From: Deltaproteobacteria bacterium
Lineage (GTDB): Bacteria; Myxococcota_A; Polyangia; JAAYKL01
NCBI GenBank assembly: GCA_030591725.1
Contig: JAUVAN010000001.1
Coordinates: 1-54,421 of the forward strand
Length of the DNA: 54,421 nt
Direction: 5' to 3'
The notes under the pieces: model-generated
Told to the model about the DNA's origin: nothing
The model's database searches: none
Seen by the model: the letters and a program-made list of their open reading frames with translations, nothing else
Made by a program: the position numbers and the translations under genes
In this document: piece by piece, positions 16,201 to 43,025 of the stretch
Numbering within the stretch: position 1 is the stretch's first letter
How the letters are laid out: each line of letters begins with the position of its first letter

Positions 16201-17736
16201 CTCAAGCCAGATCACCTCACCTCAGACCGTACCAAGATCGATCTCCTGTTGGGCAACAAGGAGTTCGAGGATGCCGTTGGGACGATGATGGAGTTCACGT
16301 TCATCTGCGAGGATCCGGCGGAGAAGCGTTCAATGGTCTGGCGGGCAGCCGATGTGCTGTATGAAGATCAGGATGACCCACAGCAGGCGATCGAGGTGTT
16401 GACCGATCTCCTGAAAGAAGGTGACCGGCACCCACAGACCGAGCGACACATAGCAAAGATCGCGGGCGACAAGGGAATGTGGGATGAGGCCACGCAGGCC
16501 CTTTCGAGACTTGCCAATATGGTTACCGACCCTGAAAAAAGGGCGGAGGTCTTGACTGAACAGGCAAGGATTTTACTCGAGAAGATGTTCGATACCGACG
16601 CCGCGTCGGAGGTCATCGACAGTGCGTTGCAGGCCAATCCGTCCGCCGTGGATGCGATAAAGCTGACCCTGGAGTTCCGGGACGAGTCGGACGCCCAGCG
16701 GGTCCTCCACACGGCGCAGAAAAATCTGACAGGCAAGATCGATGAAAACCCCGTTGATCTGAAATCCATCACCGACCTCAAGGTGGTATCGAACCTTCTC
16801 AATGATGAGAATCAGGCTGCGATTTGCAGCGAAGGAATGGTGGTTCTACGCGGATCTCCCATGGAAAAGGGAGTTTCTTTTGCGTACGTGCCAGAGGAGC
16901 CCCCCGATCCTTCCGTGTTGATGAAGATGCTCAGGCACGATGGCGAGCAAGGTCAACCGGTTGCCGACATTGCCCTCATCGCTGCTCCGGTGACTGCTGA
17001 GGTGTACGCGCGTTCCGGACACATTCCGGATTTCGGTCGCTCGACCCTGGCGAGGAAGAAGAGCGCCGATCCGGTACTGGAATGGCTCCTGCCATGGGCA
17101 ACCGTGCTTGGAGTCAAGAAGTTCGAAGTTCATCGGGTGGGTCAGGATCCCCGAGGATCCAGACCTCTTCCGGCGTCGATCCCGGCCGTGGCGGTCAACG
17201 GCGATTTCTCCAACCTCGATCTCATCAGCGCGCGCTTCTTCATCGCACGGAACTTCTGGCGTTCCATGTTTGGATTGGGCTCCTTCGAGGAGGGTGACAC
17301 CGCGACGCCGATTCGATGGTTTCTGGCGCTCACCGCCGCGACACTAGGGGAGGATGCGAACCTGCCGATTTCCACGGATATGGACCTGGTTGTCAAGGCC
17401 AGGAAGGCGCTGTCCAGGAAGATACGCAAGGAACTGGTCGCTCCGTGCACCGCGCTCTTGTCCTGTAGTGCCATGGAGATTCGTACATGGGTGGCGGCGA
17501 CGTCCTTCTCGGCGGACAGGTTCGGTTTGCTGGCGGCGGGCGATCTTTCAGAGGTCATTCCCCTGATGGTAGAGGAATCGGCAGGCCCGCCAGGGTTGAG
17601 ACGACTTGCCGAGAATGCGAGCGATGCACTCTCGAAGGTACCCAGATGCACGGAGTTGATGAGATTTGCGCTTTGTGGCCCATACCTGGAGACGAGACGA
17701 ATTATCGGGTTGAGCGAGGTGAGCAACAGTGGATAG
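13207..17736 (+). CDS. Giant (1509 aa) helical-repeat (TPR-like) protein with a C-terminal non-repeat domain of about 260 aa
   Basis: Uninterrupted ORF. The TTG at 13207 overlaps the upstream stop by 8 nt; an alternative ATG lies at 13219. No enzymatic motif found. The C-domain is paralogous to that of the next gene. Confidence 0.85.
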   Translation: MIEEMNAVPDSDVAGYWAGIVSWLARELETADDPQVTSRLRHALFRVLFDRQDRAREAAQQIDAALQMESQSADIVWDALRASTGRDSRTQVEALERLILFLDRPGDIVACHLDIAHMRQRLLDDSQGARICMEAARLADPENRGILWRDLIDALASDDDPGLLSCLEAMAKVTTDPVWESTLLVEQIVVRRRMGDEDQELSELLNRILDLPDPCWTSVNEVFRVSGELSSWDVHVRALEIMVRVALEPVPEPVSGRPAGHVFDGFGRGERYAAGFYWLLSVVKERRLNDPDGAFEALNHALELFPDNNFLAMERARLLQVMGRFNEALDAIPYGASDVWKAEIALASGRKDLVADFIREVARIGSSLLYGVLVEIAGEGKGRTDEDVDPRDPARWLLANPAHPRAPDVAAKLIESDEYLPVAGLIVQESMDQGVRWPTDEDRQFGESWAKVVDVVTGPRRGESSAYLDWADTVESPDFEADLTAIAALAAEDKGDLERALQLCANARENLSDSSGVDRQIARLLRRMGKWRDLVEHLAVVSAESENPDNSIAALHERSMVLEFVLKEPAAVADSLQELISQDPENVPVLWSMVRVATRLLDWNQVLDHLRSVAQVMPDERGRLDLLCGEISLFALGGSDDAIAYLQSAKGSLSGPLCRTAQLYLDLAYHSRGDVQPLVQLLEEQLSQGDVGLVDLWFCELLESSRATSGNAALAQILDNDRIPEAISKLWSVILGDDSRRPSGAQESFAALTSVPGAVAGACKIASVLLDKDMNAGAKLEETDLEAPEALWLMADRLSDDADPDHRIDIYAKCVALTQGEDLDEWADWILCLAQAYEDKEDLEAAVSSLKKGLEKHPDHPGLMESLARVAFDAKLFQDSADAHEKLAGYYASPHEKATQLARAATILLTHLDDPRGAEVIAREAVKRSANHDAAHEILTVILREQRDDDALVQQIEERIGAEQDVDTLVELYEEQADRFFAVDDMEGALDAVEKILDLKPDHLTSDRTKIDLLLGNKEFEDAVGTMMEFTFICEDPAEKRSMVWRAADVLYEDQDDPQQAIEVLTDLLKEGDRHPQTERHIAKIAGDKGMWDEATQALSRLANMVTDPEKRAEVLTEQARILLEKMFDTDAASEVIDSALQANPSAVDAIKLTLEFRDESDAQRVLHTAQKNLTGKIDENPVDLKSITDLKVVSNLLNDENQAAICSEGMVVLRGSPMEKGVSFAYVPEEPPDPSVLMKMLRHDGEQGQPVADIALIAAPVTAEVYARSGHIPDFGRSTLARKKSADPVLEWLLPWATVLGVKKFEVHRVGQDPRGSRPLPASIPAVAVNGDFSNLDLISARFFIARNFWRSMFGLGSFEEGDTATPIRWFLALTAATLGEDANLPISTDMDLVVKARKALSRKIRKELVAPCTALLSCSAMEIRTWVAATSFSADRFGLLAAGDLSEVIPLMVEESAGPPGLRRLAENASDALSKVPRCTELMRFALCGPYLETRRIIGLSEVSNSG

Positions 17737-20700
17737 AAACGGCACAGAGACCCCGACCTCCACGATTCTGCGGCAATCGGAGTTCTTTTCTACGATCGCC
17801 ACCATCGGTGTGTATGGAGAGCCGCCGACGCGGCTCGTGGAAATGGACGCGGACTCCGAAGAGGTATCGGACTATGTGCGTGGGAGAGTGGGAGCCCTGG
17901 TCGAGAACGCGAAGCTGAACGCCGAAAAATTGCCCGAGATCGCGGCCGGTTGTCTTCACCAGGCGGGTCGCTTTCTCGACAACAAGGCGAAGAGGCCGTC
18001 GGAGGCGTGGAGATGTCATGGGGGCGCCCTTACGATTCTGCCGGGGTATCGTCCGGCTCTGGCAGCCATGCGGCGTCTGGCCCGACGCGGCGGGGAGTCC
18101 GATAAGCTGGGAGTGGCGCTCAATGCCTGCATCGAGGTACCCGGCTTGCCGGCGGAAACAGTCACTTCGCTTTGCGAAAAAAGTGTAGTGGATCTCAAGT
18201 CGGGCAGCGACGCGAGCACTCTTGATTCTCTTCGGGAGGCCGTGCGCGTATCCCCCGACTCCATTCTCCCGCACCTGCTCAAGCTCGGGCCGGCCGCAAG
18301 GGAGGGTGATGACCACGAATTGATCGAGTCTCTCCACGCGGTGGCTGATCGCTGTCCTGACCAGAGAGTATCAATTGTGGCGCGGATGGCTCTGGTTCTC
18401 GTGGAAGAGCGTCTCGGAAACCTGGATGCGGCCCTGGAGCGCCTCGCGGAGATAGAGCCGGACGAGCAAAACAAGACGGCGCTGGCGTGGCTCAAGGTGA
18501 GACTGCAGATCCGGACGGGGGCTCTCGACGAGGCAGCGAGGACTCTCGGAGATCTTCGCGACGGATCCGGTTCTGAAGAGTTTTCCCTGGCCGTCGATCG
18601 AATCAGGAAGGCGATCAATGCGCTGTCGCTCGGTGAGCGGGAGACTGATGGGTCTACCGTGGATTCTTCGTGGGATATCGATTTACTTTGCCGTTGGAAG
18701 AGCGACGATTTTGGGGCGGAGGTGAAGGCGGCAGGGGCAGCGGTGGACTTTGTGTCGTCCGATACGATGAAGGCGGCGCTTTTCGAGAACACCCTCCTGG
18801 CTGCGATCGACGACGATTCAGGGGCGGAAAAGATACCGAAGGACGTGGATCGAAGCACACCTCGGGGGAGGGCTCTCGCGCTGGCCCTTCGAGAGGTCGA
18901 CAAGGACGACGCGACGGCGCTGCTCGCCGATCCGGAGGTCGACCCGCTGGGTTGTCTCCATGCAGCCCTCACTCATGGTGAGGACGCCGTGGTGATCAAC
19001 GCGCTTGAAGCCCTTGGAAGCAAGGCGGAGGGGGAGACGGATCGTTGGGATATCCTGGTAGCCAGGGCGGCTGTCATGCGCGACGCCGGAACCGAGCCGG
19101 TAAAAGCGCTGGAGGTCCTCAAAAACGAGGCGAACCGGATTCACAAGAGGCCCCTGGCCTCGCTCGTCAGGCTTCACGACCGGACTCCCGAAAGCCTCGC
19201 TTCACTCGCACTCTCACAGGCGGGTGACGTGAAGAACCCGGACGAAAAGGCCGATATGCTGTCCTTTGCAGCAACTCATTTTGAGAAGTTCGACCCGGCC
19301 CGGGCAGCCGAGCTTCATCGCGAGGCGTTATCATTGTGCCCCACTTGCCTCATGGCGCTGTTCGCGCTCGAGCGGGAGGGTAGTGATCATTCCAGCATAG
19401 CTATTGCCCTGGCTGCGGCAGCCGAGTCCTCCATTGACGAGAGGGATCGAGCGGTGAGCTTTGTCAAGTCCGGCGTGCACCACCTCGCTTCAGGGGTGAC
19501 GTCGCGGGCGCTTGAGTCGTTTATAAAGGCCCTCAAAGTGGCTCCCGGGGACGAGGAGCTGCGTGACTCGATTCTCCGTCTGGCGGCGTGTCATCCGGAT
19601 CTCCTGGAAGACATGGACTTGCTACAACCGCAGGATCTCGAGAATTTCTCACTGGAAAGAGTGCTGTCTCTTGGGGCGTTGGCGTTCGGCCTGGACGCGG
19701 TTGCGGCGACCAGGTTGTTTGGAAAAGCGATCGAGATAGATCCAGAAGACCCGGTAGCGGTGGTGGGTTTCACCGAGTCGGCACTGAAGAGTGGCCGCAA
19801 GAGCGAGGAATCCAGCCGATTGTTGTCGCTTCTGCGAGATGCCTCGTCGCCCCAGGAGGAGGCGTGGGTCTACCTCAGGATCGCACAGGTGGATGAGCGT
19901 TATGGCCAAGATGTGGGCGCTGCGATGTTGTCCCTCATGACGCTGGAGGAGAAGCTGCCGGGCCACAGGCCCACCCTCGGTCGACTCGCCATGTATTACG
20001 CAAGGCAAAAGCGGTTACAAGATCTGACCTGGGTCGTCCATGCCCTGTCGAACAGCCTGAACGACGATGAAGATGCGGCCTGTGCGGCAATGGTCGCATG
20101 GCGGGAGTCGATGGTCGACATCGAGCCGCTCAAGATTGCAGTATCGCGACAACCGACTTCGGTTCTCCATCTGGCCTATCTGGAGGCGCGCACCGGGGAT
20201 AAGGGGGAGCAGCGTGCTTGCCTCGAGAGCATTGTTCGACAACTTGGTGAATCGGTTGTGCACGTGTCTCGACTTGCCGACCTCCTCGAAGAGGGCGGCG
20301 AGGCACAAGCGGCATTGGAGTTGCGGAGACAGGCTCTGGAAAACAGCCCCGACTCACTTCTCGATCTCCTGGGCATAGAGCGGATCCAGGAGCGCGAGCA
20401 GGATTATCCGGCATTGATCGAGACCCTGATCCGGATCGCGGGCACCAGCAAGGTAAAGGAATTCCAGATTGCAAAGCTCCTTTTCGCCGCCCGGTTGGCC
20501 CAGGAGCAGATGAATGATCCACAGCGGGCGGCCAGGCTCTGCCTCGAGGTGTTGCAAAAGGATCCGGTCAACGAGGAAGCATTTGATCGCGGAAAGGCGA
20601 TCCTCGAAAATGTGGGGGATTCGATCATGATGGGCCGGTTCCTTTCTGCGAGAGTAGAAGGGGTGACCGACCCGGCGCGGAAGCATCAACTGCTTATCGA

Positions 20701-22270
20701 TATAGCCAATACTCGGTTGAGCAACGATGACAGGGAGGGCGCCAAGTCGAGCCTGGCGCAAGCGCTCGAACTCTTTCCATCGGATCTGGAAACCCACAGG
20801 TGGATGGCTTCCTTGCGAATGCAGGACGAGGAGTGGGAGGAGGCGATACACCACCTGATGGAGGCCGCGAAGAACGTCAAGGATCCGGAGACGGGGATGG
20901 AGGTGTTCTACGATCTTGGTGTGCTGTACATGGATCGGAGCGAGAGAAAGGACCTTGCGGAGAAGAGCTTTGTCAAGGTGCTGGGGTGGAGCCGCGATCA
21001 TTTCCTCGCCATGGAGCGATTGGGCGTGCTCTACATGTCGATAGGAAACTGGGGCCGCGCCGCGCAGGCGCTCGAGCGCGTCATCATGCTGGCGACGGAA
21101 ACGGAGATCAAGACAGCCAAGATGGTTGATCTGGCGCACGTCCTGGAAACCAATCTGAACAGGTCCAAGGACGCGGAGAGGGTTCTTTCCGAAGCGCGGC
21201 GAATCGATCCGTTGGACATCAGACCGGTGGAATATCTGGCGGGGATGTATACGCGGCAAAAAGACCCCATGGCCCTGAACGTTCTGCTGGATCAGGCGCT
21301 CACCACGCAAGCCTCGGCGATTGTCAAGAACCCGGACAACGGCGTTTTCTATTCCAACATGCTCTTCTTGTTGGCCCTGAAGTCGCAGGATGAGGTCGCG
21401 TCGCTGGCGGCGGCAGCCATGCGTATAGTCGGCGCCGAGCCGACGGAGCATTCAAAAACTGCGTCCGTGGAAAGCACATGGGAACTGGGAGCGAGGATAA
21501 GCGACCCGGTTGTAGAGGGGTACATCTGCCCCAAACACGTGCCCATCGGGATGAGGGCGACACTCCAGGCTGTCGAGGAACCCGTGGCAAAACTCTTCGG
21601 GTTCAGCGCCAAGCAGTTGGGGCTTGGTCGCGATGCTCGCGTGGACCGAAAGCTTCCGTTGCCCATGGCGATTGCCGAGCTGGCAACCACTTTTGGAATC
21701 AAACCCGAACCCGTAGTTTATGCGGGCGACGACAACGATATCCGTGTCATACCAGGATCTCCCTTCGCGGTGGTCGTGCCGACACATGTGGTCGGGTCCA
21801 CCGAGGATAACGTTGTCAGATTTGCAGCTACCTTTGCCGTGACGTCCATCAGGTGGGGAATTTCCCTCGCCACGATTCTCACGGAGCAGCAGCTACAGCA
21901 GGCCATCGGCGGCCTGGTCAGGTTGTTCGTTCCGGATTTCGCACCGACCGGCATGGACCCCTCCGTTCTTGTGAGCGTTTCGCAGAACCTCGATAAGGTT
22001 CTGACGGCGAAGATCAAGACGATCGTTCAGCCTTTTGCGTTCGACTGCGCCAGGGTGGTGGAAGTGGGCGATGTTCGCGAGAATATAGTCACCATGAGCC
22101 ACCGTGCCGGATTCCTGTCCACCGGTTCGCTCACGGGGTCCGTCGAGGCGCTTCGTGCAATTACCGGTAATCCGTCGGCGACGCTCGCTCAGTTGCCGGT
22201 GGTGGGTCGCATGATGGCATTCATCTTCAGCAAGGATCATCTGGAGCTGCGCAAGCGGATGGGCATCTAG
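17729..22270 (+). CDS. Giant (1513 aa) helical-repeat (TPR-like) protein with a paralogous C-terminal domain
   Basis: Uninterrupted ORF. The GTG at 17729 overlaps the upstream stop (17734-17736); an alternative ATG lies at 17843. TPR-like segments are present (for example WEEAIHHLMEAAKNVKDPE, GNWGRAAQALERVI). Confidence 0.85.
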   Translation: MDRNGTETPTSTILRQSEFFSTIATIGVYGEPPTRLVEMDADSEEVSDYVRGRVGALVENAKLNAEKLPEIAAGCLHQAGRFLDNKAKRPSEAWRCHGGALTILPGYRPALAAMRRLARRGGESDKLGVALNACIEVPGLPAETVTSLCEKSVVDLKSGSDASTLDSLREAVRVSPDSILPHLLKLGPAAREGDDHELIESLHAVADRCPDQRVSIVARMALVLVEERLGNLDAALERLAEIEPDEQNKTALAWLKVRLQIRTGALDEAARTLGDLRDGSGSEEFSLAVDRIRKAINALSLGERETDGSTVDSSWDIDLLCRWKSDDFGAEVKAAGAAVDFVSSDTMKAALFENTLLAAIDDDSGAEKIPKDVDRSTPRGRALALALREVDKDDATALLADPEVDPLGCLHAALTHGEDAVVINALEALGSKAEGETDRWDILVARAAVMRDAGTEPVKALEVLKNEANRIHKRPLASLVRLHDRTPESLASLALSQAGDVKNPDEKADMLSFAATHFEKFDPARAAELHREALSLCPTCLMALFALEREGSDHSSIAIALAAAAESSIDERDRAVSFVKSGVHHLASGVTSRALESFIKALKVAPGDEELRDSILRLAACHPDLLEDMDLLQPQDLENFSLERVLSLGALAFGLDAVAATRLFGKAIEIDPEDPVAVVGFTESALKSGRKSEESSRLLSLLRDASSPQEEAWVYLRIAQVDERYGQDVGAAMLSLMTLEEKLPGHRPTLGRLAMYYARQKRLQDLTWVVHALSNSLNDDEDAACAAMVAWRESMVDIEPLKIAVSRQPTSVLHLAYLEARTGDKGEQRACLESIVRQLGESVVHVSRLADLLEEGGEAQAALELRRQALENSPDSLLDLLGIERIQEREQDYPALIETLIRIAGTSKVKEFQIAKLLFAARLAQEQMNDPQRAARLCLEVLQKDPVNEEAFDRGKAILENVGDSIMMGRFLSARVEGVTDPARKHQLLIDIANTRLSNDDREGAKSSLAQALELFPSDLETHRWMASLRMQDEEWEEAIHHLMEAAKNVKDPETGMEVFYDLGVLYMDRSERKDLAEKSFVKVLGWSRDHFLAMERLGVLYMSIGNWGRAAQALERVIMLATETEIKTAKMVDLAHVLETNLNRSKDAERVLSEARRIDPLDIRPVEYLAGMYTRQKDPMALNVLLDQALTTQASAIVKNPDNGVFYSNMLFLLALKSQDEVASLAAAAMRIVGAEPTEHSKTASVESTWELGARISDPVVEGYICPKHVPIGMRATLQAVEEPVAKLFGFSAKQLGLGRDARVDRKLPLPMAIAELATTFGIKPEPVVYAGDDNDIRVIPGSPFAVVVPTHVVGSTEDNVVRFAATFAVTSIRWGISLATILTEQQLQQAIGGLVRLFVPDFAPTGMDPSVLVSVSQNLDKVLTAKIKTIVQPFAFDCARVVEVGDVRENIVTMSHRAGFLSTGSLTGSVEALRAITGNPSATLAQLPVVGRMMAFIFSKDHLELRKRMGI

Positions 22271-32935: not shown

Positions 32936-34051
32936 CTACGGGCAGCTGGCCGGAACCGGCGTACAAGAATCATTTAGGTTACTAAAGACACTTGTAAATG
33001 TGGGTCCGCTGGTGAGCTGGTCCAGAAGATCGCACGCCTCGCAGTCGGGCAAGGTGGTGTTCCCATAGATGTACAATGTCAAACCCACCGAAGTGAGTAC
33101 GTCAATGCTGTCTAGGTTGGTGAGGGTAACGTTTTCGTGGATGAACACTCCCCCGCCCACTGCGGTGAGGGCACCCAGCCCGTTAAGGCTGGTGAGGACT
33201 TCGTTGAGGCCGATAACTAAATCCTCACCCACCGAAGAGATGCCGTTCAGGCCTGTCAAGTCAGTGAGGGCGTTGTTGTTTTCGATATGCAATTCTCCAC
33301 CCACCGAGGTGATGCCGCATAGACTGGTCAAGTCATTGAGGACATCGTTCTCAACGATTATCAAGTTTCCGGTTATCGAGGTAAGAGCGCTCAGGCCATC
33401 CAGGTTGTTGAGGATGGGGTTGCCGCACATGAACAAATATCCGCCCAACGAGCCGGTGATACCGCTCAGCCAGTCCAGGTTGGTGATGACGGGGTTGTAC
33501 CCGATGTACAGGTGTTCACCCACTGAAGTGATCCCGCTCAGCCCATCTAGGTTGCTGAGGACGTCGTTGTCTATAACAACCAAGCCCCCACCCACCGAGG
33601 AGATCCCGCTCAGTCCGTCTAGATTGCTGATGACTTCGTTGTGTCCGATAACTAAATCCTCACCCACCGTGGTGAGGCAATCCAGATCGCTCAAGTCGGT
33701 GCATGAATCGCAGAAATGGATAAACAAGCTGCCCGAGATCGAGGTGTGTCCCGCGAGGGTTGCGACGTCCGATTGCGTGTCTATAGTGAAATCGCCGGTG
33801 TACTCTCCTAGAGGACAATCAGTGTCTGTGCCGGTGTCGGTATCCGTATCGGTATCTGTATCGGTGTCTGTATCGGTATCGGTACCGGTGTCTGTATCGG
33901 TATCGGTGTCAGTGTCAGTGTCGGTATCGGTATCAGTGTCGGTGTCAGTGTCGGTGGTTCCACCGCCAGGGTCACCGGATGAGCTTTTCGAGCAGCCGGC
34001 GGCTGCTACGGCTAGCACCAGACTCGGTAAAAGGAATTTAATAGCCATCAT
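32936..34051 (-). CDS. Lipoprotein with a poly(Thr-Asp) linker and about 10 leucine-rich repeats of 24 aa
   Basis: Lipobox AAAGC. 47 aa of (TD)n with a few TG interruptions. Repeats are of the form LSGITSVGxxLxIxxNxxLxNLDG. The C-terminus is Cys-containing. Confidence 0.85.
   Translation of the reverse strand: MMAIKFLLPSLVLAVAAAGCSKSSSGDPGGGTTDTDTDTDTDTDTDTDTDTDTDTGTDTDTDTDTDTDTDTDTGTDTDCPLGEYTGDFTIDTQSDVATLAGHTSISGSLFIHFCDSCTDLSDLDCLTTVGEDLVIGHNEVISNLDGLSGISSVGGGLVVIDNDVLSNLDGLSGITSVGEHLYIGYNPVITNLDWLSGITGSLGGYLFMCGNPILNNLDGLSALTSITGNLIIVENDVLNDLTSLCGITSVGGELHIENNNALTDLTGLNGISSVGEDLVIGLNEVLTSLNGLGALTAVGGGVFIHENVTLTNLDSIDVLTSVGLTLYIYGNTTLPDCEACDLLDQLTSGPTFTSVFSNLNDSCTPVPASCP
33818..33958 (-). 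repeat. Hexanucleotide coding microsatellite encoding (Thr-Asp)n
   Basis: Plus strand reads GTGTCGGTATCGGTATCTGTATC... for about 140 nt. Confidence 0.9.
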
Positions 34052-34200: not shown

Positions 34201-35163
34201 ATGGACCAGGCGACAGCTCTCTACCTCACGTATATCGAGCACGAACGGCGATTCTCTCACCGGACGGTGGAGGCCTACGGTAGCGCGCTTCGGGAGTTCA
34301 GTCGTTTTCTCAACGAGAAAGACCTGCCTGACGACCTCGCCGGGATTGACTCGACCCATATTCGTGCATACCTTGCCGGCCTGTATGGGAGAAACAGACC
34401 TGCGAGCATGGCCGCAAAACTGGCGGCGCTTCGAGGGTTCTTTTCGTATTTGAAAAAAACGGGACTGATCGACAGCAGCCCGGCCGCGGCGGTCCGCACA
34501 CCAAGGGTCAAGAGAAAGATGCCGGGTTTCGTTTCGGTGGACGAGGCGTCGCGCCTCGCGGACGTTGACTGGGAAGACAGCCCCGCAGGGGTGCGGGACA
34601 GGGCGATGGTCGAGGTGCTCTACGGGAGCGGATTGCGCGTGAGCGAGCTCTGTGCGCTGGATCTGGACTCGATCAACCTGGACTCTAAAAGCGTTCGGGT
34701 GAAGGGGAAGGGCGGCAAGGAGAGGCTCGTTCCCCTGGGGAGAAAAGCCGTGGAGGCGCTCGATAGCCATCTTCGGCAAAGAGAGGCGGTGGTGGTAGTG
34801 AAGAACAAGGTGGCTCACCCCGAGGCGCTCTTCCTCAACAGAAGCGGCGGGAGATTGTCTGTTCGATCGGTTCAGCGTATGGTCGCTCGGCGGGGGATCC
34901 AGTTGGCAACCAGGGAGGCCGTGCATCCCCACTCGCTTCGTCACTCGTGCGCGACGCACATGCTCGATGGGGGCGCCGATCTTCGCGTCATCCAGGAATT
35001 ACTCGGTCATGCGAGCCTCTCCACCACACAGCGATATACTCATGTGAGCATCGACGGCCTCATGGAGGTGTACGACAAGGCTCATCCCAAGGCCCGGCAA
35101 ACAGATGGGAAAAAACGAGAAAAAGAGGGCGCGGAAAAAACCCGCCTGAGAGAGAAAAAATGA
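34201..35163 (+). CDS. xerC: Tyrosine recombinase XerC/XerD (CodV-like)
   Basis: Start placed at the ATG at 34201 ([16 protein letters not shown]). Catalytic elements: [17 protein letters not shown] and [14 protein letters not shown]. About 25 aa of Lys/Glu/Arg-rich C-terminal tail. The stop overlaps the hslV ATG. Confidence 0.85.
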
Positions 35164-35705
35164 ACGAGAACAACCAGAAAATCAGGTCCACCACGATCAT
35201 CGCTGTGCGGAAGGACGGCAAGGTGGCCCTGGCGGGGGATGGCCAGGTTACGATGGGCCAGACGGTGATGAAAATGTCGGCCCGCAAGGTCAGGAGGCTG
35301 GCCGGCGGCAATGTCATCGCCGGTTTTGCCGGCGCAACGGCGGACGCGTTTACCCTTTTCGGGCGCCTCGAGCAGAAGCTGGAGGAGTACAACAACAACC
35401 TGTTGCGCGCCTCGGTGGAGCTGGCCAAGGACTGGCGAACCGATCGCATGCTTCGGCGTCTGGAGGCGTTGCTCATCGCCGTGGATGCGAAGAGCTCGTT
35501 GTTGATCTCGGGCACAGGGGACATCATCGAGCCGGACGAGGGGGTGCTGGCCATCGGGTCGGGCGGCACCTTCGCCCAGGCGGCGGCCATGGCGCTCCTG
35601 AACAACACCGATCTCGCGGCCGACGAGATCGCATTGGAATCGTTGAAGATCGCACAGTCGATCTGCATCTACTCGGGCGGCGAGATCATGCTGGAAACAA
35701 TATGA
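35160..35705 (+). CDS. hslV: ATP-dependent protease subunit HslV (with a 10-aa N-terminal extension)
   Basis: [10 protein letters not shown] precedes [21 protein letters not shown] ... [14 protein letters not shown] overlap with xerC. Confidence 0.9.
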
Positions 35706-35726: not shown

Positions 35727-37109
35727 ATGACTGATCCAGAAAAACTGCCGGTGGCGGCGACCTTTACACCTAGAGAGATCGTTTCCGAGCTCGACCGCTA
35801 CATTATCGGGCAGAACAAGGCCAAGCGCGCGGTGGCCATTGCCTTGCGGAATCGCTGGAGGCGACAGCAGGTGGCGGGGGATCTTCGCGAGGAGATCTCG
35901 CCCAAGAACATCATCATGATCGGGCCCACCGGCGTCGGAAAGACCGAGATCGCCCGTCGGCTGGCCAAGCTCGCCCAGGCGCCATTCGTCAAGGTGGAGG
36001 CTTCCAAGTTCACCGAGGTCGGCTACGTGGGGCGGGATGTGGATTCCATCGTGAGGGACCTCGTCGAGGCATCCGTGTCGCTCGTGCGGCGCGAGGAGGA
36101 GGAGCGAATAAGGACCAAGGCGAAGGACATGGCCGAGGACAGAGTGCTGGAGATAATCGCGAGGGAGGAGAAGCCAGCTGTCACAGGGCCGTCGTACGAG
36201 ATGCCGGACCAGGCCGAGAAGGTCGTTACAGTCGAGGAGCTGCGGCCCAGGTTGCGGGCCGGAGAGTTCGATAAGCGATACATTGAGATGGAAGTAGCGG
36301 ACACGAACATGCCGATGGTCGAGGTGTTCAGCGCGGCCGGGCTCGAGGACATCAACCTCAAGGACATGTTCCAGAACCTCCCCGGGTTCAAGGATCGGAA
36401 GAAGAGGCGCAAGGTCAAGGTTCCCGAGGCGCTGGAGCTGTTCACCGGCCAGGAGGCCGAGAAGCTGATCGACATGGACGCGGTCCAGCAGGAGGGCCGT
36501 ACCCGCGCCGAGCAAACCGGAATAGTGTTCATCGACGAGATAGACAAGATCGTCGGGCGTAGCCGCAGTTCGGAAGGTCATGGACCGGACGTCTCACGGG
36601 AAGGCGTGCAAAGAGATCTCCTGCCCATGGTGGAGGGTTCCACGATCAACACGAAGTACGGTCCGGTCAAGACCGATCACGTGTTGTTCATCGCGGCGGG
36701 AGCGTTTCATGTGAGCAAACCGTCCGACATGGTGCCCGAACTGCAGGGCAGGTTTCCCATTCGTGTGGAGCTCGACTCCCTGGGCGCCGACGAATTTGTA
36801 CGAATTCTCACCGAGCCGAAGAACGCGCTGATCAAGCAGTACGTGGCGCTGATGGAAACCGAGGGCCTTTCGCTGAAGTTCGGGAAGGACGGTATCAACG
36901 AGGTTGCCCAGATAGCGGCCCGGGTCAACGACACCATGGAAAACATCGGCGCCCGGCGGCTGTACACGGTCCTGGAAAAACTCCTCGAGGAAATTTCGTT
37001 CAATGCCCCCGAGATGGGTGGACAAACGGTTGAAATCGATGCCGGAAAGGTTCAGGAATCGTTGTCCGGTACTCTGGAGAGCGAGGATCTGACGAGGTTC
37101 ATTCTCTGA
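35727..37109 (+). CDS. hslU: ATP-dependent protease ATPase subunit HslU
   Basis: [16 protein letters not shown], Walker [26 protein letters not shown], and C-terminal DLTRFIL. Confidence 0.95.
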
Positions 37110-37123
37110 TTTTAAATGGGGCA

Positions 37124-37159
37124 ATTGGCACAAATGTTTCTCTTGCCTATGCTTTTTTT
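37124..37159 (+). terminator. Candidate intrinsic terminator after hslU
   Basis: ATTGGCA-N13-TGCCTAT (one T-T mismatch) followed by GC + T7 (37153-37159). Confidence 0.4.
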
Positions 37160-37252
37160 CAGCCTAGAATAGTGTTTTCGAAAGACAAGCATGGGGTATT
37201 GGTATTTCAAGATGAATTTCAGTGATAGGCGCGTCCATATGACGAGGTTCGT

Positions 37253-38665
37253 ATGAAGTTGCCGGAATGTCGCCTGGTTCCCCGGGTTACAGAAACCGGT
37301 GATTCCGGCTCGTTGGACGTGATGGCCTCGCTTGTATTGTCCATGACTGATGGCAAGGCAACCATCTCAGAATTGGGTGAAATGTGTGGAATGGGTGACG
37401 AGTTGGCGCAGAAAATAGTCGCCAATCTCGTGAGCAAAGATCTGGTCAAAGTTCCCGGTTTTGGCGAAGACCGGCAAGACGCGGAACAACATAATAAGAT
37501 GTCCGAGGTTGACGCCCTTCTCGCGCGCATCGACGGGATGACTTTCTACGACATCCTGAGTGTCGCGCCGGATGCGAACCGAAAAGAGATGCGATCGTCC
37601 TACTTTTCGCTGTCCAAGAAGTTTCATCCCGACAGGGTCTTCGGCGACAAGAGCGGTAAGCAAAAGCGAAAAATGGAGATTGCTTTTGGGCGCATCACAC
37701 GAGCGTACGACACCCTGTCCAATAGCGACCAGCGAGCCGAATACGACGAGTACATCGCAGATCAGATCAAGTTGTGGAAAATAGAAAAACAACTCAAGGA
37801 CGCACTCGGCAAGGACGAGCCAAAAGAGAAGGATCGCCCGGAACCCAGGCCCATACCCAGGTCCTCGAGTCGCACTCCCACCAGACCGATCCAGATGAAT
37901 ACTATTGCGCCCAGGAGAATCCCACCCCGCTCCAGGCCGACCAACGTGCCTGCGTCTGTCGAAAGAGTTTCGTCCAAACCGCCCATAAGGAGACCTGCGA
38001 GAACATCGAACCCGCCCCAAAAGAAAGAGGGAAGCGGGTCCAATCCTGATCTGAACGCCCGAAGGGATCAGTTGAAACGAGAGCGCCTGTCTCGGGCTCT
38101 GGACCGGTCGCTATCCGAGAAGCCAAAGGATCAGAGGGCTCCGGTTATCGACAGGAAGATGGTTGAAAACAAGATGAATCACGCCCGGATTGCCCTGGAG
38201 CAACGAGAGTTTACGGATGCCGTCACTATTTTTGGAGAGATCCTGGCGCTGGATGGACGAAACGCAGAGGCGGCGGATCTGCTGGAGCAGGCCAAGGTCG
38301 GAGCACGACAAGCCATCGCCAAGGGCTATCTTCGCCAGGGGCGGTACGAGCGCAAGAACGGTGATTTCAGGCAGGCGAAAAGCCATTTCGACAAGGCCCT
38401 CCAGTCCGATCCGGAAAACCTGGAAGCGCGTCATCTACTTTCGCAGACTCTACTGGATCTGCGGTCCGAACTTCCGCGAGCTCTGGTGCTGTGCAGGGAG
38501 TTGACCCGCATGGGTGGACAGAAGGGTAGATATTTCGCTACTCTGGGGGAGCTTTTATTGTTGGCCAAGGAAAACGCGAAGGCCTGCGATGCTTTCGAGC
38601 AGGCGTTGCTGCTGGAACCGGACAACAGAGATTACAAGAAGCGTTACAAAACCTGTAAGGGCTGA
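37253..38665 (+). CDS. J-domain (DnaJ-like) protein with an N-terminal about 48-aa module, a basic/Pro-rich linker and C-terminal TPRs
   Basis: J-domain FYDILSVAPDANRKEMRSSYFSLSKKFHPDRV (HPD present). C-terminal TPR-like GDFRQAKSHFDKALQSDPEN and AKACDAFEQALLLEPDN. The start is uncertain. Confidence 0.8.
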   Translation: MKLPECRLVPRVTETGDSGSLDVMASLVLSMTDGKATISELGEMCGMGDELAQKIVANLVSKDLVKVPGFGEDRQDAEQHNKMSEVDALLARIDGMTFYDILSVAPDANRKEMRSSYFSLSKKFHPDRVFGDKSGKQKRKMEIAFGRITRAYDTLSNSDQRAEYDEYIADQIKLWKIEKQLKDALGKDEPKEKDRPEPRPIPRSSSRTPTRPIQMNTIAPRRIPPRSRPTNVPASVERVSSKPPIRRPARTSNPPQKKEGSGSNPDLNARRDQLKRERLSRALDRSLSEKPKDQRAPVIDRKMVENKMNHARIALEQREFTDAVTIFGEILALDGRNAEAADLLEQAKVGARQAIAKGYLRQGRYERKNGDFRQAKSHFDKALQSDPENLEARHLLSQTLLDLRSELPRALVLCRELTRMGGQKGRYFATLGELLLLAKENAKACDAFEQALLLEPDNRDYKKRYKTCKG

Positions 38666-38695
38666 CGTCGGCGCAAACAGGAAGAGGGAAATCGA

Positions 38696-40519
38696 ATGGA
38701 AAAAGTGATCGGCATCGATCTGGGGACCACAAACTCCTGCGTAGCAGTGGTTGAGGGAGATACACCGTCGGTTGTTCCCAATCGTGGTGGATACAAGACG
38801 ACGCCCTCAATGATTGCGGTAACAGAGGCCGAGAAGAGGCTCGTTGGTCACATCGCAAAACGTCAGGCGATCACCAACGCGGAAAACACGGTCTACGCAT
38901 CCAAGCGCCTGATCGGAAGAAAGTGGCAGTCTCCGCCGGTTATGGCAGCCAAGGAATCGGCTCCTTACAAGGTGTCGGAGGGGCCCCACGACGACGTGCG
39001 CATTGAGCTGAGGGGCAAGCTCTACTCCATTCCCGAGATCTCCGCGATGATCCTTCAGGAGATGAAGATAGTTGCAGAGGATTATCTCGGCGAGTTGGCA
39101 GAGAAGGCCGTGGTTACGGTTCCGGCTTATTTCAACGACAACCAGCGTCAGGCGACGCGTGATGCAGGACTCATCGCCGGGCTCGAGGTTATTCGCATCA
39201 TCAACGAGCCGACCGCCGCGGCGCTGGCATATGGCTTCGGCAAGAAGATCGATCGGCTGGTGGCCATTTACGACCTGGGCGGAGGAACGTTTGATATTTC
39301 CATATTGGAGATCGGTTCCAACGAAGTGTTCAAGGTCATCTCCACCGCAGGGGACACCTTCCTCGGAGGTGAGGATTTCGATACCCGGATCATGGACTGG
39401 CTGGTTCAGGGCTTCATGGATGATCACGGCGTCGATCTTCGGCAGGACAAGATGGCCCTTCAGCGCCTGAAAGATGCAGCGGAGAAGGCCAAGATCGAGC
39501 TGTCCGGCCAGAACGAGGTCGAGATCAATCTTCCGTTCATCATCTCGGTGGGCCAGAATGAGGCGCTTCATCTCCAGCGGTCGCTTCGGCGCGAGTCTTT
39601 CGAGGAGCTGTGCGTGGATCTCATTTCACGCACCGTCGATATCTGCGCCGCCACTCTGAGGGAGTCCGGGCTCGACAAGGGCGAGATAGAGGACGTCATC
39701 CTGGTCGGCGGCATGACAAGAGTGCCCGCCGTGCAAAAAGCCGTTTCGGAATTTTTCGGCCGTGAACCGTGCAAGGGTGTTCATCCCGATGAAGTAGTTG
39801 CCCTTGGAGCGGCCATTCAGGCTGTCGCACTTGTGGACGAGGGAAGCGAGATGCTTCTCCTCGACGTCACGCCGCACACGCTGGGCATCATGATCGTGGG
39901 AGGATATTTCGAGGAGTTGATCCCGCAGAACTCCACGGTTCCCACCGAGAGATCCAAGATCTTCACCACGGTGCGCGACAACCAGACTGCGGTCAAGATC
40001 CTTGTGTTGCAGGGCGAGAGCGAGCGTGCGGAGGAGAACGAGCTTCTCGGCGAGTTTGTCCTTACGGGGCTTCGCAAGGCTCCAAAGGGTCAGATTGAGG
40101 TGGAGGTGACGTTTGAAATAAACGCCGACGGGATCGTGAGCGTATCTGCCAAGGACCTCGAGACCGGGCTCAAACAATCCATCAATGTGACCGCTTCTTC
40201 AGGCCTGACTCCGGACGAGATCAAGGACATGGTGGAGGATAGCAAGGACTACCTTGTCGACCGTCGTTCCACGGAAGAATTCGATACTGCGAGGCAGGAT
40301 GCCGAGAAGATCATCCGTGAGCTGGACAGGATGTTCTCCAAGGTGGAGGAAATGGTGACGGGCTCCGAGTTTGGGCAGGAGGCGCTGGCAAAGGCCAAGG
40401 ATCTGATCGAACGTTCCCATAAGGCCATCGAGGCCAGAGACCTGCAGATGGTGCTGGAATCTATCGAGATCCTGAAACGAACCCAGAAAATGTTCAAGGG
40501 AGTACTGGCGCGGAGTTGA
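38696..40519 (+). CDS. Hsp70 family chaperone (DnaK paralogue)
   Basis: 607 aa. [25 protein letters not shown] and [10 protein letters not shown], plus a complete substrate-binding domain. It lacks the usual Gly/acidic DnaK tail, and there is no adjacent grpE. Confidence 0.9.
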
Positions 40520-40546
40520 TCAGTACCTCTTCATATCGGTGGAACG

Positions 40547-41401
40547 ATGAGCGAAGAGAAGAAGAACAACAAGTGGGCCAAGGTGCTCGACGAGGCTGGA
40601 CTTCTCGAAGATATTGAAGAAGGCTGGAGTATCCACGAGAGCTCGGTGGCTGGATCTACCATCACCGTGAAGAGTTCGGGATCCGACGCCATCCCGACCA
40701 CGGTTGCTCCTCCCAGACACAAGATGAAACGCAAGGATCACGAACTTGTCAGTGATTCCAGGCAGCCGGCGGCGGCGCAAAGCGGGCCCCCTCAACCGTA
40801 CATCGATGTTTCCAGCGCCAAGGAGACCAAGGTGGGGCTCTCGGACGCTTTGGCCCATGACTCCGACCCGGCGGAGGCAATCCCGATGCGGGAGCGGATC
40901 TCCAATGTGGGATCGGCGCGGATATCCGTTATCCCGGAGGCTGGCGAACCAATCATGTCCGGTCGGCCGGAGGCCATAGTAGATGAACCGGTGACGGAGG
41001 AAAGGCCGGCCCTCGATACTGATACATATCCCCCCAGAGATCTGCGGCGGGAGATGCGCGAATGCTACGAGGCGGGGGACTATTCCGGCGCCCTCGATCT
41101 GGCGGAGCGTATCCTCGTTGAATTTCCCGACGACGTAAACGTTTTACGGAGCAGGATGAATTTCCGCGACGTGCTCATCAAGATGTACGAGTCCACGATC
41201 GGTTCCTTCGATCGGGTTCCGAGGGCGGTGGTTTCCGATCGCGAGATAATCTGGCGAAACCTGGATTCCGCCGCCGGGTTCATACTGTCTCGGATCGACG
41301 GGACGATCTCGTTCGAGGACATCATAGATATTTCCGGGTTTCCCCGATTCGAGACCTGCAGGATACTCAGCCGACTGCTCAAAGACGGCATCATATCGTA
41401 G
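40547..41401 (+). CDS. Hypothetical 284-aa protein: acidic/low-complexity N-half, one TPR-like unit, and a C-terminal module shared with the J-protein
   Basis: Starts 27 nt after the Hsp70 stop. The C-terminal LDSAAGFILSRIDGTISFEDIIDISGFPRFETCRILSRLLKDGII aligns with J-protein residues 19-67. Confidence 0.65.
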   Translation: MSEEKKNNKWAKVLDEAGLLEDIEEGWSIHESSVAGSTITVKSSGSDAIPTTVAPPRHKMKRKDHELVSDSRQPAAAQSGPPQPYIDVSSAKETKVGLSDALAHDSDPAEAIPMRERISNVGSARISVIPEAGEPIMSGRPEAIVDEPVTEERPALDTDTYPPRDLRREMRECYEAGDYSGALDLAERILVEFPDDVNVLRSRMNFRDVLIKMYESTIGSFDRVPRAVVSDREIIWRNLDSAAGFILSRIDGTISFEDIIDISGFPRFETCRILSRLLKDGIIS

Positions 41402-41404
41402 AAA

Positions 41405-42451
41405 TTGAAATTGAGAGAACCAGTAGTTTGGGCTGTCGCGCTGATCGTATTGGTCGGAGGATGGGGTTCCGTTGCCGTGGGGGAGGACGACGGGGTGCCT
41501 TCGATCATTGTCGTTCGCATGAGAGTAATCGTCCTTCGTGGCTCACCCGGACGGGCGCCCATCGTCGGTGGTGATGAAGCCGGTGTCTGGGAGGTGATTC
41601 GACATCAGGTCGAGGTGGTGAATCAGGTGATGTCCCAGTGTCACATTCGGGTGGGGGGGCCGGATGAGGTGGATATTGTGATCGCCGATCCGCCGGGTCC
41701 TTGCCTGCTCTCGGTGGGAGAAAAGTACGGGTTGCCATCTTCCGGGGGCGAGGTGAGGTTGATGCTCGATGGGGAAAAGCTGGGCCCCTGGAATATCGCC
41801 GGCGACTTGACTCCCGAGCAGACGGCCCGGGTTCTCTTTCGATACATCGAGGATGCCGGATTCAAACCCGATCTGACCGTCGGAATCAGGGGCCCCTCCG
41901 ACGCGTTTGCGCGAGCGGATCTGCTGGTGCGGCGCGTAGATGGGACGCTGGCCGAGATCGAACGGTGGCCACACGAACCGCTAACAACGGATTCGATGCA
42001 ATCCATTGACATTGGGATGGTTCGGCTGGACGACGGGCTCGAGTCATACGGGGTGAACGAGATTAACATTGGCACCCTCGAGGAGCGAACGCTTCTGAGG
42101 GCGTTGTCCAGCAAGGAGCCTGGAACCGTGGAGATCTTTATAGTCAATCGGTTCGCAGGATCACACAAGCAGGGAGAGTCGTTCATCGCTTCGTCCGCCG
42201 GGACTCTCGGGGACGCCGCCATCCTCGATTGGCGCGCCCTGGGGCGTGCGCGAACAGCGTATACGTTTGCTCACGAACTCGGGCACTTGTTGCTCGGGGA
42301 TCTTTCGCACCCTGATTCAAGGGGCGACCGAAGGACGTGGTTGCTCATGCACTCGCGCGCCAGTTCCGCAGTGGGGGGACCTGCGCGGATCACCGAAGAG
42401 CAGTGCACGAGAATGAGGGAGAGATGGGGGGAAATTAGAGCTTCTTTTTGA
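41405..42451 (+). CDS. Secreted HExxH-motif protein (putative zinc metallopeptidase)
   Basis: TTG start 3 nt after the previous stop. Signal-like N-terminus VVWAVALIVLVGGWGSVAVG. FAHELGHLLLGDLSHPD near the C-terminus. Confidence 0.6.
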   Translation: MKLREPVVWAVALIVLVGGWGSVAVGEDDGVPSIIVVRMRVIVLRGSPGRAPIVGGDEAGVWEVIRHQVEVVNQVMSQCHIRVGGPDEVDIVIADPPGPCLLSVGEKYGLPSSGGEVRLMLDGEKLGPWNIAGDLTPEQTARVLFRYIEDAGFKPDLTVGIRGPSDAFARADLLVRRVDGTLAEIERWPHEPLTTDSMQSIDIGMVRLDDGLESYGVNEINIGTLEERTLLRALSSKEPGTVEIFIVNRFAGSHKQGESFIASSAGTLGDAAILDWRALGRARTAYTFAHELGHLLLGDLSHPDSRGDRRTWLLMHSRASSAVGGPARITEEQCTRMRERWGEIRASF

Positions 42452-43025
42452 ACTTGAATGGCTTGTCGAAAACGGCGCGACCTCCTTCGGGTGCGGGGAA
42501 CTTCCATTTTCTTATAGTGCTCTTTACGCAGCCGGTCATGGTCGAATCGCCGACCGTATCTTTGTTCACGCCGATGCCCGTCACCTTGCCCTTCGGGGAG
42601 ATGGCGATGCGAAGATCGAGAGTACCTTCCAGCATGGGGTTCAGTTTGAGACGCCGTTCGTAACATGCTCTCACCTGGCTGAATCGCGAGTTGATGAATA
42701 CCTTGACCTGGCGCGCGTCGATCTTGCCCATTGGTTCCGATGCTTGACCCCTGGGGCGATTTCCCTTTGGGGGTTGTGGAACCTCGATAGCCACTGTCGA
42801 TCCGGCGTCCTGTGGCTTCTGTTCTATTGGATTCATATTGTCCGAAATTACGAGCGGGGCCGGCATTTCGATCGGCTCATCAATCACCGGAGGCGCATCT
42901 TTACGCCCGGTCGGAGCGGAGCGTTGCATGAAGAAAACCACGCCGGCGATTATCAGTATAATGACACCACCTGCGAGTAGGAGAACTATACCTTTGCTTC
43001 CTTGCGAACCTTGATTGTCAGCCAT
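42435..43025 (-). CDS. Membrane-anchored protein with an AgmX/PglI-type (TonB-C-like) C-terminal domain
   Basis: N-terminal TM IVLLLAGGVIILIIAGVVFF, a Pro-rich spacer, and C-terminal VRACYERRLKLNPMLEGTLDLRIAISPKGKV ... CVKSTIRKWKFP. Confidence 0.6.
   Translation of the reverse strand: MADNQGSQGSKGIVLLLAGGVIILIIAGVVFFMQRSAPTGRKDAPPVIDEPIEMPAPLVISDNMNPIEQKPQDAGSTVAIEVPQPPKGNRPRGQASEPMGKIDARQVKVFINSRFSQVRACYERRLKLNPMLEGTLDLRIAISPKGKVTGIGVNKDTVGDSTMTGCVKSTIRKWKFPAPEGGRAVFDKPFKFKKKL

Follow-up and report, generated by a model that had tools for sequence, protein, structure and literature searches.

Introduction

Bacterial Hsp70 paralogues that have their own J-proteins are known, and few of them, to our knowledge, have a defined client or a third component. 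Here we describe a probable specialised Hsp70 module of three components, found in a stretch of 54,421 nucleotides (nt) from Deltaproteobacteria bacterium (GTDB lineage Bacteria; Myxococcota_A; Polyangia; JAAYKL01; GenBank assembly GCA_030591725.1, contig JAUVAN010000001.1, positions 1 to 54,421). This whole 54-kb stretch is referred to as the window. The locus lies on the + strand and contains the genes of a J-domain protein of 470 amino acids (aa) (37253–38665), a DnaK-like Hsp70 of 607 aa (38696–40519), a 284-aa protein which we call the partner (40547–41401), and an HELGH protein of 348 aa, referred to as gene 4 (41405–42451). The first three are called the triad, and related loci carry labels such as L001.

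The closest described system is that of Myxococcus xanthus, in which the Hsp70 and the J-protein have already been described gene by gene (PMC8265645; PMC11019930). M. xanthus encodes two canonical DnaKs: MXAN_3192 (DnaK1), which is essential, heat-induced and equipped with a C-terminal tail, and MXAN_6671 (SglK, DnaK2), which is tail-less and co-transcribed with a grpE homologue (PMC8265645; PMC11019930). Both belong to PRK00290 and are 58% and 62% identical to E. coli DnaK, respectively (PMC11019930). Two other proteins, MXAN_3016 and MXAN_2747, are classified as ‘cl35085 but not PRK00290’, yet are named DnaK by NCBI (PMC8265645; PMC11019930). MXAN_3016 has no C-terminal tail, is non-essential, weakly expressed and not heat-induced, and cannot replace E. 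coli dnaK. Mutants without it sporulate less and are less resistant to H2O2, with swarming and predation at the wild-type level (PMC8265645). MXAN_3015 is a class C J-protein of 453 aa that co-purifies with MxDnaK1 (PMC11019930), and no J-protein neighbours DnaK1 or DnaK2 (PMC8265645; PMC11019930). The two studies treat MXAN_3015 and MXAN_3016 separately and do not mention the third gene (PMC8265645; PMC11019930).

The window locus resembles MXAN_3015/3016 in its J-protein–Hsp70–partner order, its short gaps, the hslVU genes upstream and the tail-less Hsp70, and its J-domain has the HPDRxFG-type insertion found in MXAN_3015. Unlike the Myxococcus type, the window Hsp70 keeps a conserved C-terminus and passes the NF001413 cut-off, and the N-terminus of its partner is a degenerate helix rather than a clear TPR. 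SglK is likewise a myxobacterial Hsp70 paralogue without a tail, but it belongs to the PRK00290 DnaKs, complements E. coli dnaK and shares a transcript with a grpE homologue (PMC11019930), and its segment at the start of the β subdomain of the substrate-binding domain (SBD-beta), known from primer-derived sequence, differs from that of the window Hsp70. Outside the myxobacteria, the nearest parallel is E. coli HscC, a specialised Hsp70 whose gene cluster also encodes class C J-proteins of its own (DjlB/DjlC), YbeU and the Sel1/TPR-like protein YbeT, with no grpE. However, HscC is only 31% identical to the window Hsp70 and is without the DnaK-type exchange elements, its J-proteins are anchored in the membrane, and no homologue of the partner, or of the module that it shares with the window J-protein, is present in that cluster.

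Results

Judged by synteny, primer-derived protein termini and the best-matching J-domain, the window triad corresponds to MXAN_3015 (J-protein), MXAN_3016 (Hsp70) and MXAN_3017 (partner). When the J-domains of 13 M. xanthus J-proteins (taken from Data Set S4 of PMC11019930) were compared with triad J-proteins, MXAN_3015 was the best of the 13 for every one tested: the window protein scored 134 against MXAN_3015 and 112 against the next best, and Polyangia J-proteins scored 162–174 against MXAN_3015 and at most 125 against the other M. xanthus J-domains. A metagenome scan yielded two loci, L088 and L089, whose J-domains are 93% and 90% identical to MXAN_3015. Their gene order is xerC, a transporter gene, hslV, hslU, an aminotransferase gene, J/TPR protein (447 aa), Hsp70 (613 aa, starting MAEPEPLIGIDLG) and partner (292 aa, starting MSSQR). 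According to the published primers, MXAN_3016 begins with MAEPEPL, 12 nt after the stop of the gene upstream, and the gene that follows begins with MSSQR. The L088 Hsp70 start (MAEPEPL) and next-gene start (MSSQR) are the very residues encoded by the MXAN_3016 primers and the downstream junction. The hidden Markov model (HMM) of the partner recognised the genes downstream of the L088 and L089 Hsp70s (E 6e-31 and 7e-31), and the J-plus-TPR architecture is the same in L088 and in the window. A word-indexed protein search with the 72-aa MXAN_3015 J-domain gave no candidate, a result limited by the index and not evidence of absence.

The conserved unit is the three genes for J-protein, Hsp70 and partner, not four genes. 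We assembled two sets of related loci: a scan of GTDB species genomes with the window Hsp70 gave 80 loci with 70–98% identity, including Sorangium, Chondromyces, Labilithrix, Byssovorax, Sandaracinaceae and many metagenome-assembled genomes (MAGs), and metagenome loci were gathered with the published MXAN_3015 J-domain as a query. Open reading frames (ORFs) in these loci were called and then scored by phmmer and hmmsearch. Among loci having both flanks, J-protein, Hsp70 and partner were encoded together on one strand in 69 of 71 GTDB species loci and stood together in 31 of 32 metagenome loci. In about 97% of loci, in varied contexts, the J-protein and partner genes accompany the Hsp70 gene. 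The gap between Hsp70 and partner is short across loci (median 18–25 nt, and 25 nt in the GTDB set); in the window, where the preliminary description had reported four + strand genes separated by 30, 27 and 3 nt, the ORFs bear this out. The triad spans Polyangia, Myxococcus-like lineages and the window’s own lineage, its carriers being named Myxococcota as well as unclassified ‘Deltaproteobacteria/Proteobacteria’ MAGs, and it was found in all myxobacterial lineages sampled. Its surroundings change from lineage to lineage: the xerC-hslVU...mraZ setting of the window recurs in L001 and L005, the triad of L088 lies behind hslVU plus the aminotransferase gene, that of an anaerobic-digester Myxococcales MAG (L003) adjoins ilvD and a helicase gene, and that of the complete genome of Minicystis rosea (L006) adjoins mrdA/rodA. 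Across triad loci the identity ranges are 71–98% for the Hsp70, 27–92% for the J-protein and 35–90% for the partner. The earlier proposal, in which a specialised Hsp70 is served by its own J-protein and by a third protein, is supported.

The J-protein (ORF, Pfam/NCBIfam) combines four parts. An N-terminal module shared with the partner (aa 14–66, nt 37292–37450) is followed by the J-domain (aa 98–165, nt 37544–37747, HPD at aa 125), by a basic Pro/Arg-rich linker (aa 171–315) with a net charge of +20 and 48% P/R/S/K, and by a C-terminal TPR domain (aa ~328–466, nt 38234–38650); Pfam, charge and hhalign thus agree with the layout first proposed for this protein. The DnaJ domain is the only DnaJ-family match and the remainder is TPR, which places the protein in class C. 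In eukaryotes, the TPR J-proteins DNAJC3/p58IPK and DNAJC7 also combine a J-domain with TPRs that bind clients or partners. Unlike in DNAJC3 and DNAJC7, the J-domain of the window protein precedes the TPRs, its Hsp70 lacks EEVD, and the homology extends only to the generic domains.

The partner (identified as an ORF and by the partner profile) matched no Pfam or NCBIfam family at threshold. Its alignments divide into an N-terminal helix, a variable and mostly acidic disordered linker, a TPR-like hairpin and a terminal segment of ~55 residues. In the window protein, these correspond to a helix or degenerate TPR motif (aa 1–30), the acidic linker (aa 31–160), the hairpin (aa ~163–218) and the shared module (aa ~231–284, nt 41237–41398). 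In Myxococcus-like proteins the N-terminal helix forms one clear TPR, and in Polyangiaceae it is an acidic motif containing Trp. The first 160 residues have a net charge of –11, and residues 32–161 have a predicted local distance difference test score (pLDDT) below 50 in the AlphaFold model. The full-length model is mostly of low confidence, the hairpin being modelled confidently and the shared module poorly. A word-indexed search with the partner returned 51 matches, all of them hypothetical proteins of Deltaproteobacteria, Myxococcales or Polyangia MAGs, and a profile search reached 3,089 representative clusters, nearly all through the C-terminal ~125 residues. Searches of PDB sequence profiles gave TPR-like matches only, and Foldseek with an improved model of the C-terminal domain gave only short TPR matches (E >0.39).

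At the profile level, the J-protein and the partner share a module of ~53 aa. An hhalign comparison of 124 J-protein N-termini with 101 partner C-termini aligned J-protein residues 14–66 with partner residues ~231–284 over 53 columns (97.7% probability, E 2e-12), the direct BLASTP comparison of the two window proteins being marginal (E 0.036). The two disordered linkers are of opposite charge in most loci: the J-protein linker is net positive in 97 of 104 loci and the partner linker net negative in 95 of 104. The acidic disordered half and the common module, both reported for the partner before, are therefore borne out by pLDDT, charge and hhalign.

One alternative concerns the partner, which could be a dedicated, largely disordered client whose assembly, localisation or turnover is controlled by the J-protein/Hsp70 pair. 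Disorder is predicted for about half of the partner, the protein evolves fast (35–50% identity) while the Hsp70 is constrained, and there is precedent for single-client Hsp70s, HscA with IscU being an example. However, the module shared with the J-protein fits pairing or co-targeting better than a substrate role, and the conserved parts of the partner are folded TPR-like helices rather than an exposed Hsp70-binding peptide. We regard the client role as rather unlikely, although the client and co-chaperone readings are not mutually exclusive.

Gene 4 had been counted as the last member of a four-gene operon. Its product plausibly is a secreted zincin-like protein: the N-terminus is signal-peptide-like by composition, with K/R followed by a hydrophobic stretch at residues 11–25, and the HELGH motif (aa 290–294, nt 42272–42286), a further histidine eight residues on (H302) and LLMxS are kept in seven homologues (30–85% identity), in agreement with both features first noted for this TTG-initiated gene. 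It matched no Pfam or NCBIfam family at threshold: Pfam M78 scored 13.1, below the cut-off of 22, one homologue reaching 25.0. Motif-level matches to ADAMTS-5 and IrrE among PDB profiles were non-significant (E 0.16–0.29). Compared with the 477–517-aa homologues of L001, L005, L009, L010 and L014, the window protein is without ~150 N-terminal residues that follow the signal peptide.

If the four genes formed one machine, a cytosolic Hsp70 system would be coupled to a secreted HExxH protein, for example for its folding, export or control. The 3-nt gap between partner and gene 4, the presence of gene 4 beside the triad in eight related loci (34–87% identity) and the invariance of the HExxH motif and the further histidine speak for such a coupling. 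On the other hand, a gene 4 homologue was found in only 5 of 63 GTDB loci with enough downstream sequence, all of the window’s own lineage, and in none of 29 metagenome loci carrying the triad. The triad must then work without gene 4 in Polyangiaceae and Myxococcus-like genomes, and so narrow a distribution speaks against any conserved link to the chaperone. The predicted compartments of the Hsp70 system and gene 4 also differ, and the residues lost from the window protein fit the coupling poorly. The four-gene machine is thus improbable, and neither the four-gene unit nor the coupling to an exported metalloprotease, which had been put forward as a notable feature, holds as a conserved trait: gene 4 is a neighbour restricted to one lineage and lies outside the conserved unit.

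The window Hsp70 (Pfam, NCBIfam, tree) is complete but tail-less, in line with the preliminary description. Pfam HSP70 covers residues 4–592 (E 3e-209; profile positions 1–585 of 599), the interdomain linker LLLDVTP, SBD-beta and the helical lid are present, and in the alignment with E. coli DnaK the protein stops where the DnaK tail begins. In E. coli DnaK numbering, which is used here throughout, the catalytic residues D8, K70, E171, D194, T199 and D201 and the J-contact residues R167, N170 and T173 are all kept. The DnaK-type exchange-control elements are kept as well (loop 28–34 length, K55, R56 and E267, with the conservative changes L257M and E264D); in DnaK, these elements cause dependence on GrpE. 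The protein therefore has the full nucleotide-binding domain, linker, SBD-beta and lid and the J-contact and exchange-control elements of the DnaK–DnaJ–GrpE system, from which it differs by the lack of an adjacent grpE or class A dnaJ, the lack of a tail and a changed substrate-binding arch. In the substrate-binding segment LSLGIET has become HTLGIMI (the counterpart of VTPLSLGV reads VTPHTLGI), and the arch carries E402M, T403I, M404V and A429V, in addition to T437K. The canonical LSLGIET.GG segment and the arch residues M404/A429 are not matched, V standing at both arch positions. From these residues we infer a J-responsive and exchange-factor-dependent Hsp70 with an altered client preference.

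Comparison of sequences sets this Hsp70 apart from HscA, HscC and canonical DnaK of the E. coli type. Its identity is 98% and 97% to the Hsp70s of the MAGs CSMAG_2956 and CSMAG_306, 71% to that of the Sorangium triad and 54% to the MXAN_3016-like protein. It reaches 51% with a DnaK from an alphaproteobacterium, 48% with E. coli DnaK, 38% with HscA and 31% with HscC, and the value for E. coli DnaK falls short of the 58–62% of M. xanthus DnaK1/DnaK2 (PMC11019930). With the two lowest values, yet with DnaK-type exchange elements retained, it does not belong to the HscA/HscC class. The NCBIfam models for DnaK are divided: NF001413 scored it at 758.8, above the cut-off of 648, and TIGR02350 at 733.8, below the cut-off of 822.55. 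In a neighbour-joining tree that included DnaK, HscA and HscC, the triad Hsp70s, with the MXAN_3016-like ones among them, formed one clade sister to canonical DnaKs. The phylogenetic placement asked for at the outset was thus obtained with respect to DnaK, HscA, HscC and the MXAN_3016 type, the tree containing no sequence of MxDnaK1, MxDnaK2 or StkA. At the C-terminus, a motif RTQ(K/R)MFKGV(V/L) (nt 40490–40516) is kept in window-type and Polyangia-type Hsp70s (L003–L086), weaker in L096 and L102 and lost in the Myxococcus-like L088 and L089; it could be a docking site, for example for a TPR domain. NCBI and JGI records name the whole clade ‘molecular chaperone DnaK’, probably because the cut-off of NF001413 is passed, and this label is likely to be a systematic over-annotation of a distinct paralogue.

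These data also bear on whether the Hsp70 is an ordinary housekeeping DnaK that has been displaced from grpE and dnaJ, with incidental neighbours. Passing NF001413 (PRK00290), the public name of the clade, the very strong conservation of the protein (71–98%) and its intact exchange elements and J-contact residues would all suit a housekeeping chaperone. Against this stand the identity to E. coli DnaK and the TIGR02350 score just given (PMC11019930), the altered substrate arch and missing tail, the co-location of J-protein and partner across contexts, and the monophyly with the MXAN_3016 type, which in M. xanthus is found beside two canonical DnaKs, can be deleted and fails to complement E. coli dnaK (PMC8265645). 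A displaced canonical dnaK, which the preliminary description had named as the outcome that would undo its proposal, is thus a poor prospect.

In the window, xerC, hslV (35160–35705, +) and hslU (35727–37109, +), identified from their translations, precede the triad; they serve as synteny anchors and lie outside the module. The terminator-like element reported downstream of hslU is present as an imperfect hairpin with U7 (~37119–37160, +), but it is weak, since its fold is no better than that of shuffled sequence (z –0.5) and a terminator scan made no call there. It is overlapped by a promoter-like site, TTGCCT-16-TAGAAT (37143–37170, +). The intergenic region between hslU and the J-protein gene (37107–37255) is 92% identical among the window, L007 and L008; the –35 hexamer TTGCCT is identical in all three, and the –10 hexamer TAGAAT recurs in L008 and reads TAAAAT in L007. 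A heat-shock-type element was not recognised in this region. A candidate sigma-54 site upstream of the J-protein gene (TGGCAC...TTGC) was rejected by eye, its spacing being 11 nt and not 5 nt. Rfam found no RNA element in the window. As first noted for the locus itself, GrpE is missing: neither the 54-kb window nor the flanks of ~160 related loci contain a GrpE homologue, and the window contains no second Hsp70 or class A DnaJ.

The position behind hslU raises the possibility that the triad cooperates with the HslVU protease by delivering substrates to it. The xerC-hslV-hslU genes stand ahead of the triad in the window’s lineage and 1.3–1.4 kb upstream in Myxococcus-like loci, and overall hslU lies directly or 1.3–4.7 kb upstream in the window’s lineage, Myxococcus-like loci and some Polyangiales loci. 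However, hslU and the triad are no longer linked in Sorangium, Chondromyces, Minicystis and Labilithrix, the triad is preceded by a promoter-like site of its own, and hslVU-triad adjacency may be ancestral gene order, so we give functional coupling to HslVU little credence. In Myxococcus-like loci a class III aminotransferase gene (L088 5157–6539) separates hslU from the triad. This insertion makes the xerC-hslVU anchor seem ancestral and the position of the triad slightly remodelled.

Downstream, gene 4 is met by a convergent gene (42435–43025, –) for a membrane-anchored protein with an AgmX/PglI-type TonB-C domain (NF033768, 87.7 bits, cut-off 40), whose end overlaps that of gene 4 by 17 nt and which is also kept in L001, L002, L005, L007 and L008; mraZ, rsmH, ftsL and ftsI lie beyond it. 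This domain marks the organism as myxobacterial and SglK is also tail-less (PMC11019930), but an SglK/StkA-type Hsp70 controlling exopolysaccharide, fibrils and social motility is highly improbable here, as SglK has a grpE-like gene before it and reads VTPLSLGV where the window Hsp70 has no grpE and reads VTPHTLGI, and as deletion of MXAN_3016 left swarming and predation wild-type (PMC8265645). The likeness to stk/sgl loci that had been suggested is therefore set aside: SglK belongs to the DnaK2 clade behind a grpE-like gene, and the counterpart of the window locus is MXAN_3015–3017.

Elsewhere in the window, a 371-aa lipoprotein-like ORF (32936–34051, –) between trmFO and xerC has a (TD)n run of ~30 repeats and leucine-rich-type repeats of ~23 residues, with no Pfam match; related loci have nothing or an FHA protein at this place. 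Giant TPR proteins of 1819, 1509 and 1513 aa (2974–8433, 13207–17736 and 17729–22270) surround a gene for an 891-aa protein with MshEN and HEAT domains (10539–13214), and these genes may represent a large conserved myxobacterial cluster. PADLOC anti-phage defence models gave only two marginal matches (E 0.005–0.009) and no system match.

Discussion

Our data suggest that the window probably encodes a specialised Hsp70 module of three components, of the MXAN_3015–3017 type. A plausible working model is that the class C J-protein drives the neighbouring Hsp70: it would dock through its HPD J-domain on its cognate Hsp70, triggering ATP hydrolysis and client capture. We propose this docking because the Hsp70 keeps R167, N170, T173, the linker and all ATPase residues. 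The choice of clients would be narrowed by the changed substrate-binding arch of the Hsp70 (E402M, T403I, M404V, A429V) and by the C-terminal TPR domain of the J-protein. The partner probably forms a pair with the J-protein or recognises a target common to both, acting as an adaptor or regulator, and the oppositely charged disordered linkers, of which that of the J-protein is basic and that of the partner acidic, may help this pairing. Nucleotide exchange would probably be provided in trans by the housekeeping GrpE, since the Hsp70 retains the DnaK-type exchange-control elements, and the lack of grpE in ~160 loci points in the same direction; a role of the partner in nucleotide exchange is also possible. 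A reading of the missing grpE as independence from GrpE is not supported, the exchange-control elements being retained.

Several points weigh against this model. The interaction among the three proteins is deduced from their sequences and gene order, and MXAN_3015 co-purified with MxDnaK1 (PMC11019930), which means that the J-protein may serve more than the neighbouring Hsp70. The window-type Hsp70 shares only 54–57% identity with the MXAN_3016 type, within Polyangia it is much better conserved (71–98%) than its co-chaperones, and it passes the NF001413 DnaK cut-off (758.8 versus 648). This combination of divergence from MXAN_3016, strong constraint and an NF001413 pass means that its role could be broader than in M. 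xanthus. In addition, DnaK1 and DnaK2 are told apart from this clade by published identities and by short segments derived from primers, AlphaFold modelled the shared module with low confidence, and no canonical dnaK or grpE was found in the 54-kb window, the part of the genome that was covered.

We tentatively consider a stronger form of the three-component model, in which the partner and the J-protein are a two-part co-chaperone, joined or co-targeted by the shared module of ~53 aa, and in which the partner is obligatory and sets client specificity or controls the ATPase/nucleotide cycle of an Hsp70 present throughout the myxobacteria. If true, this would represent a bacterial three-component Hsp70 system with a new domain family of ~3,000 sequence clusters that has no Pfam or PDB relative.

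The Hsp70 and J-protein of this module have known counterparts. In the literature searched, we came across no account of the three-gene unit, of the partner family or of the module common to partner and J-protein. The naming of this clade as ‘molecular chaperone DnaK’ can mislead counts of DnaK copies in genomes. MXAN_3017 is a concrete and testable partner for the published and unexplained phenotypes of MXAN_3016 and MXAN_3015. By extrapolation from M. xanthus, the physiological role of the module would be auxiliary proteostasis in development and oxidative stress rather than general housekeeping folding. Finally, the pairing of a strongly constrained Hsp70 with fast-evolving cofactors that keep their architecture makes the myxobacterial triad a good system for studying how specificity is built around an Hsp70 core.

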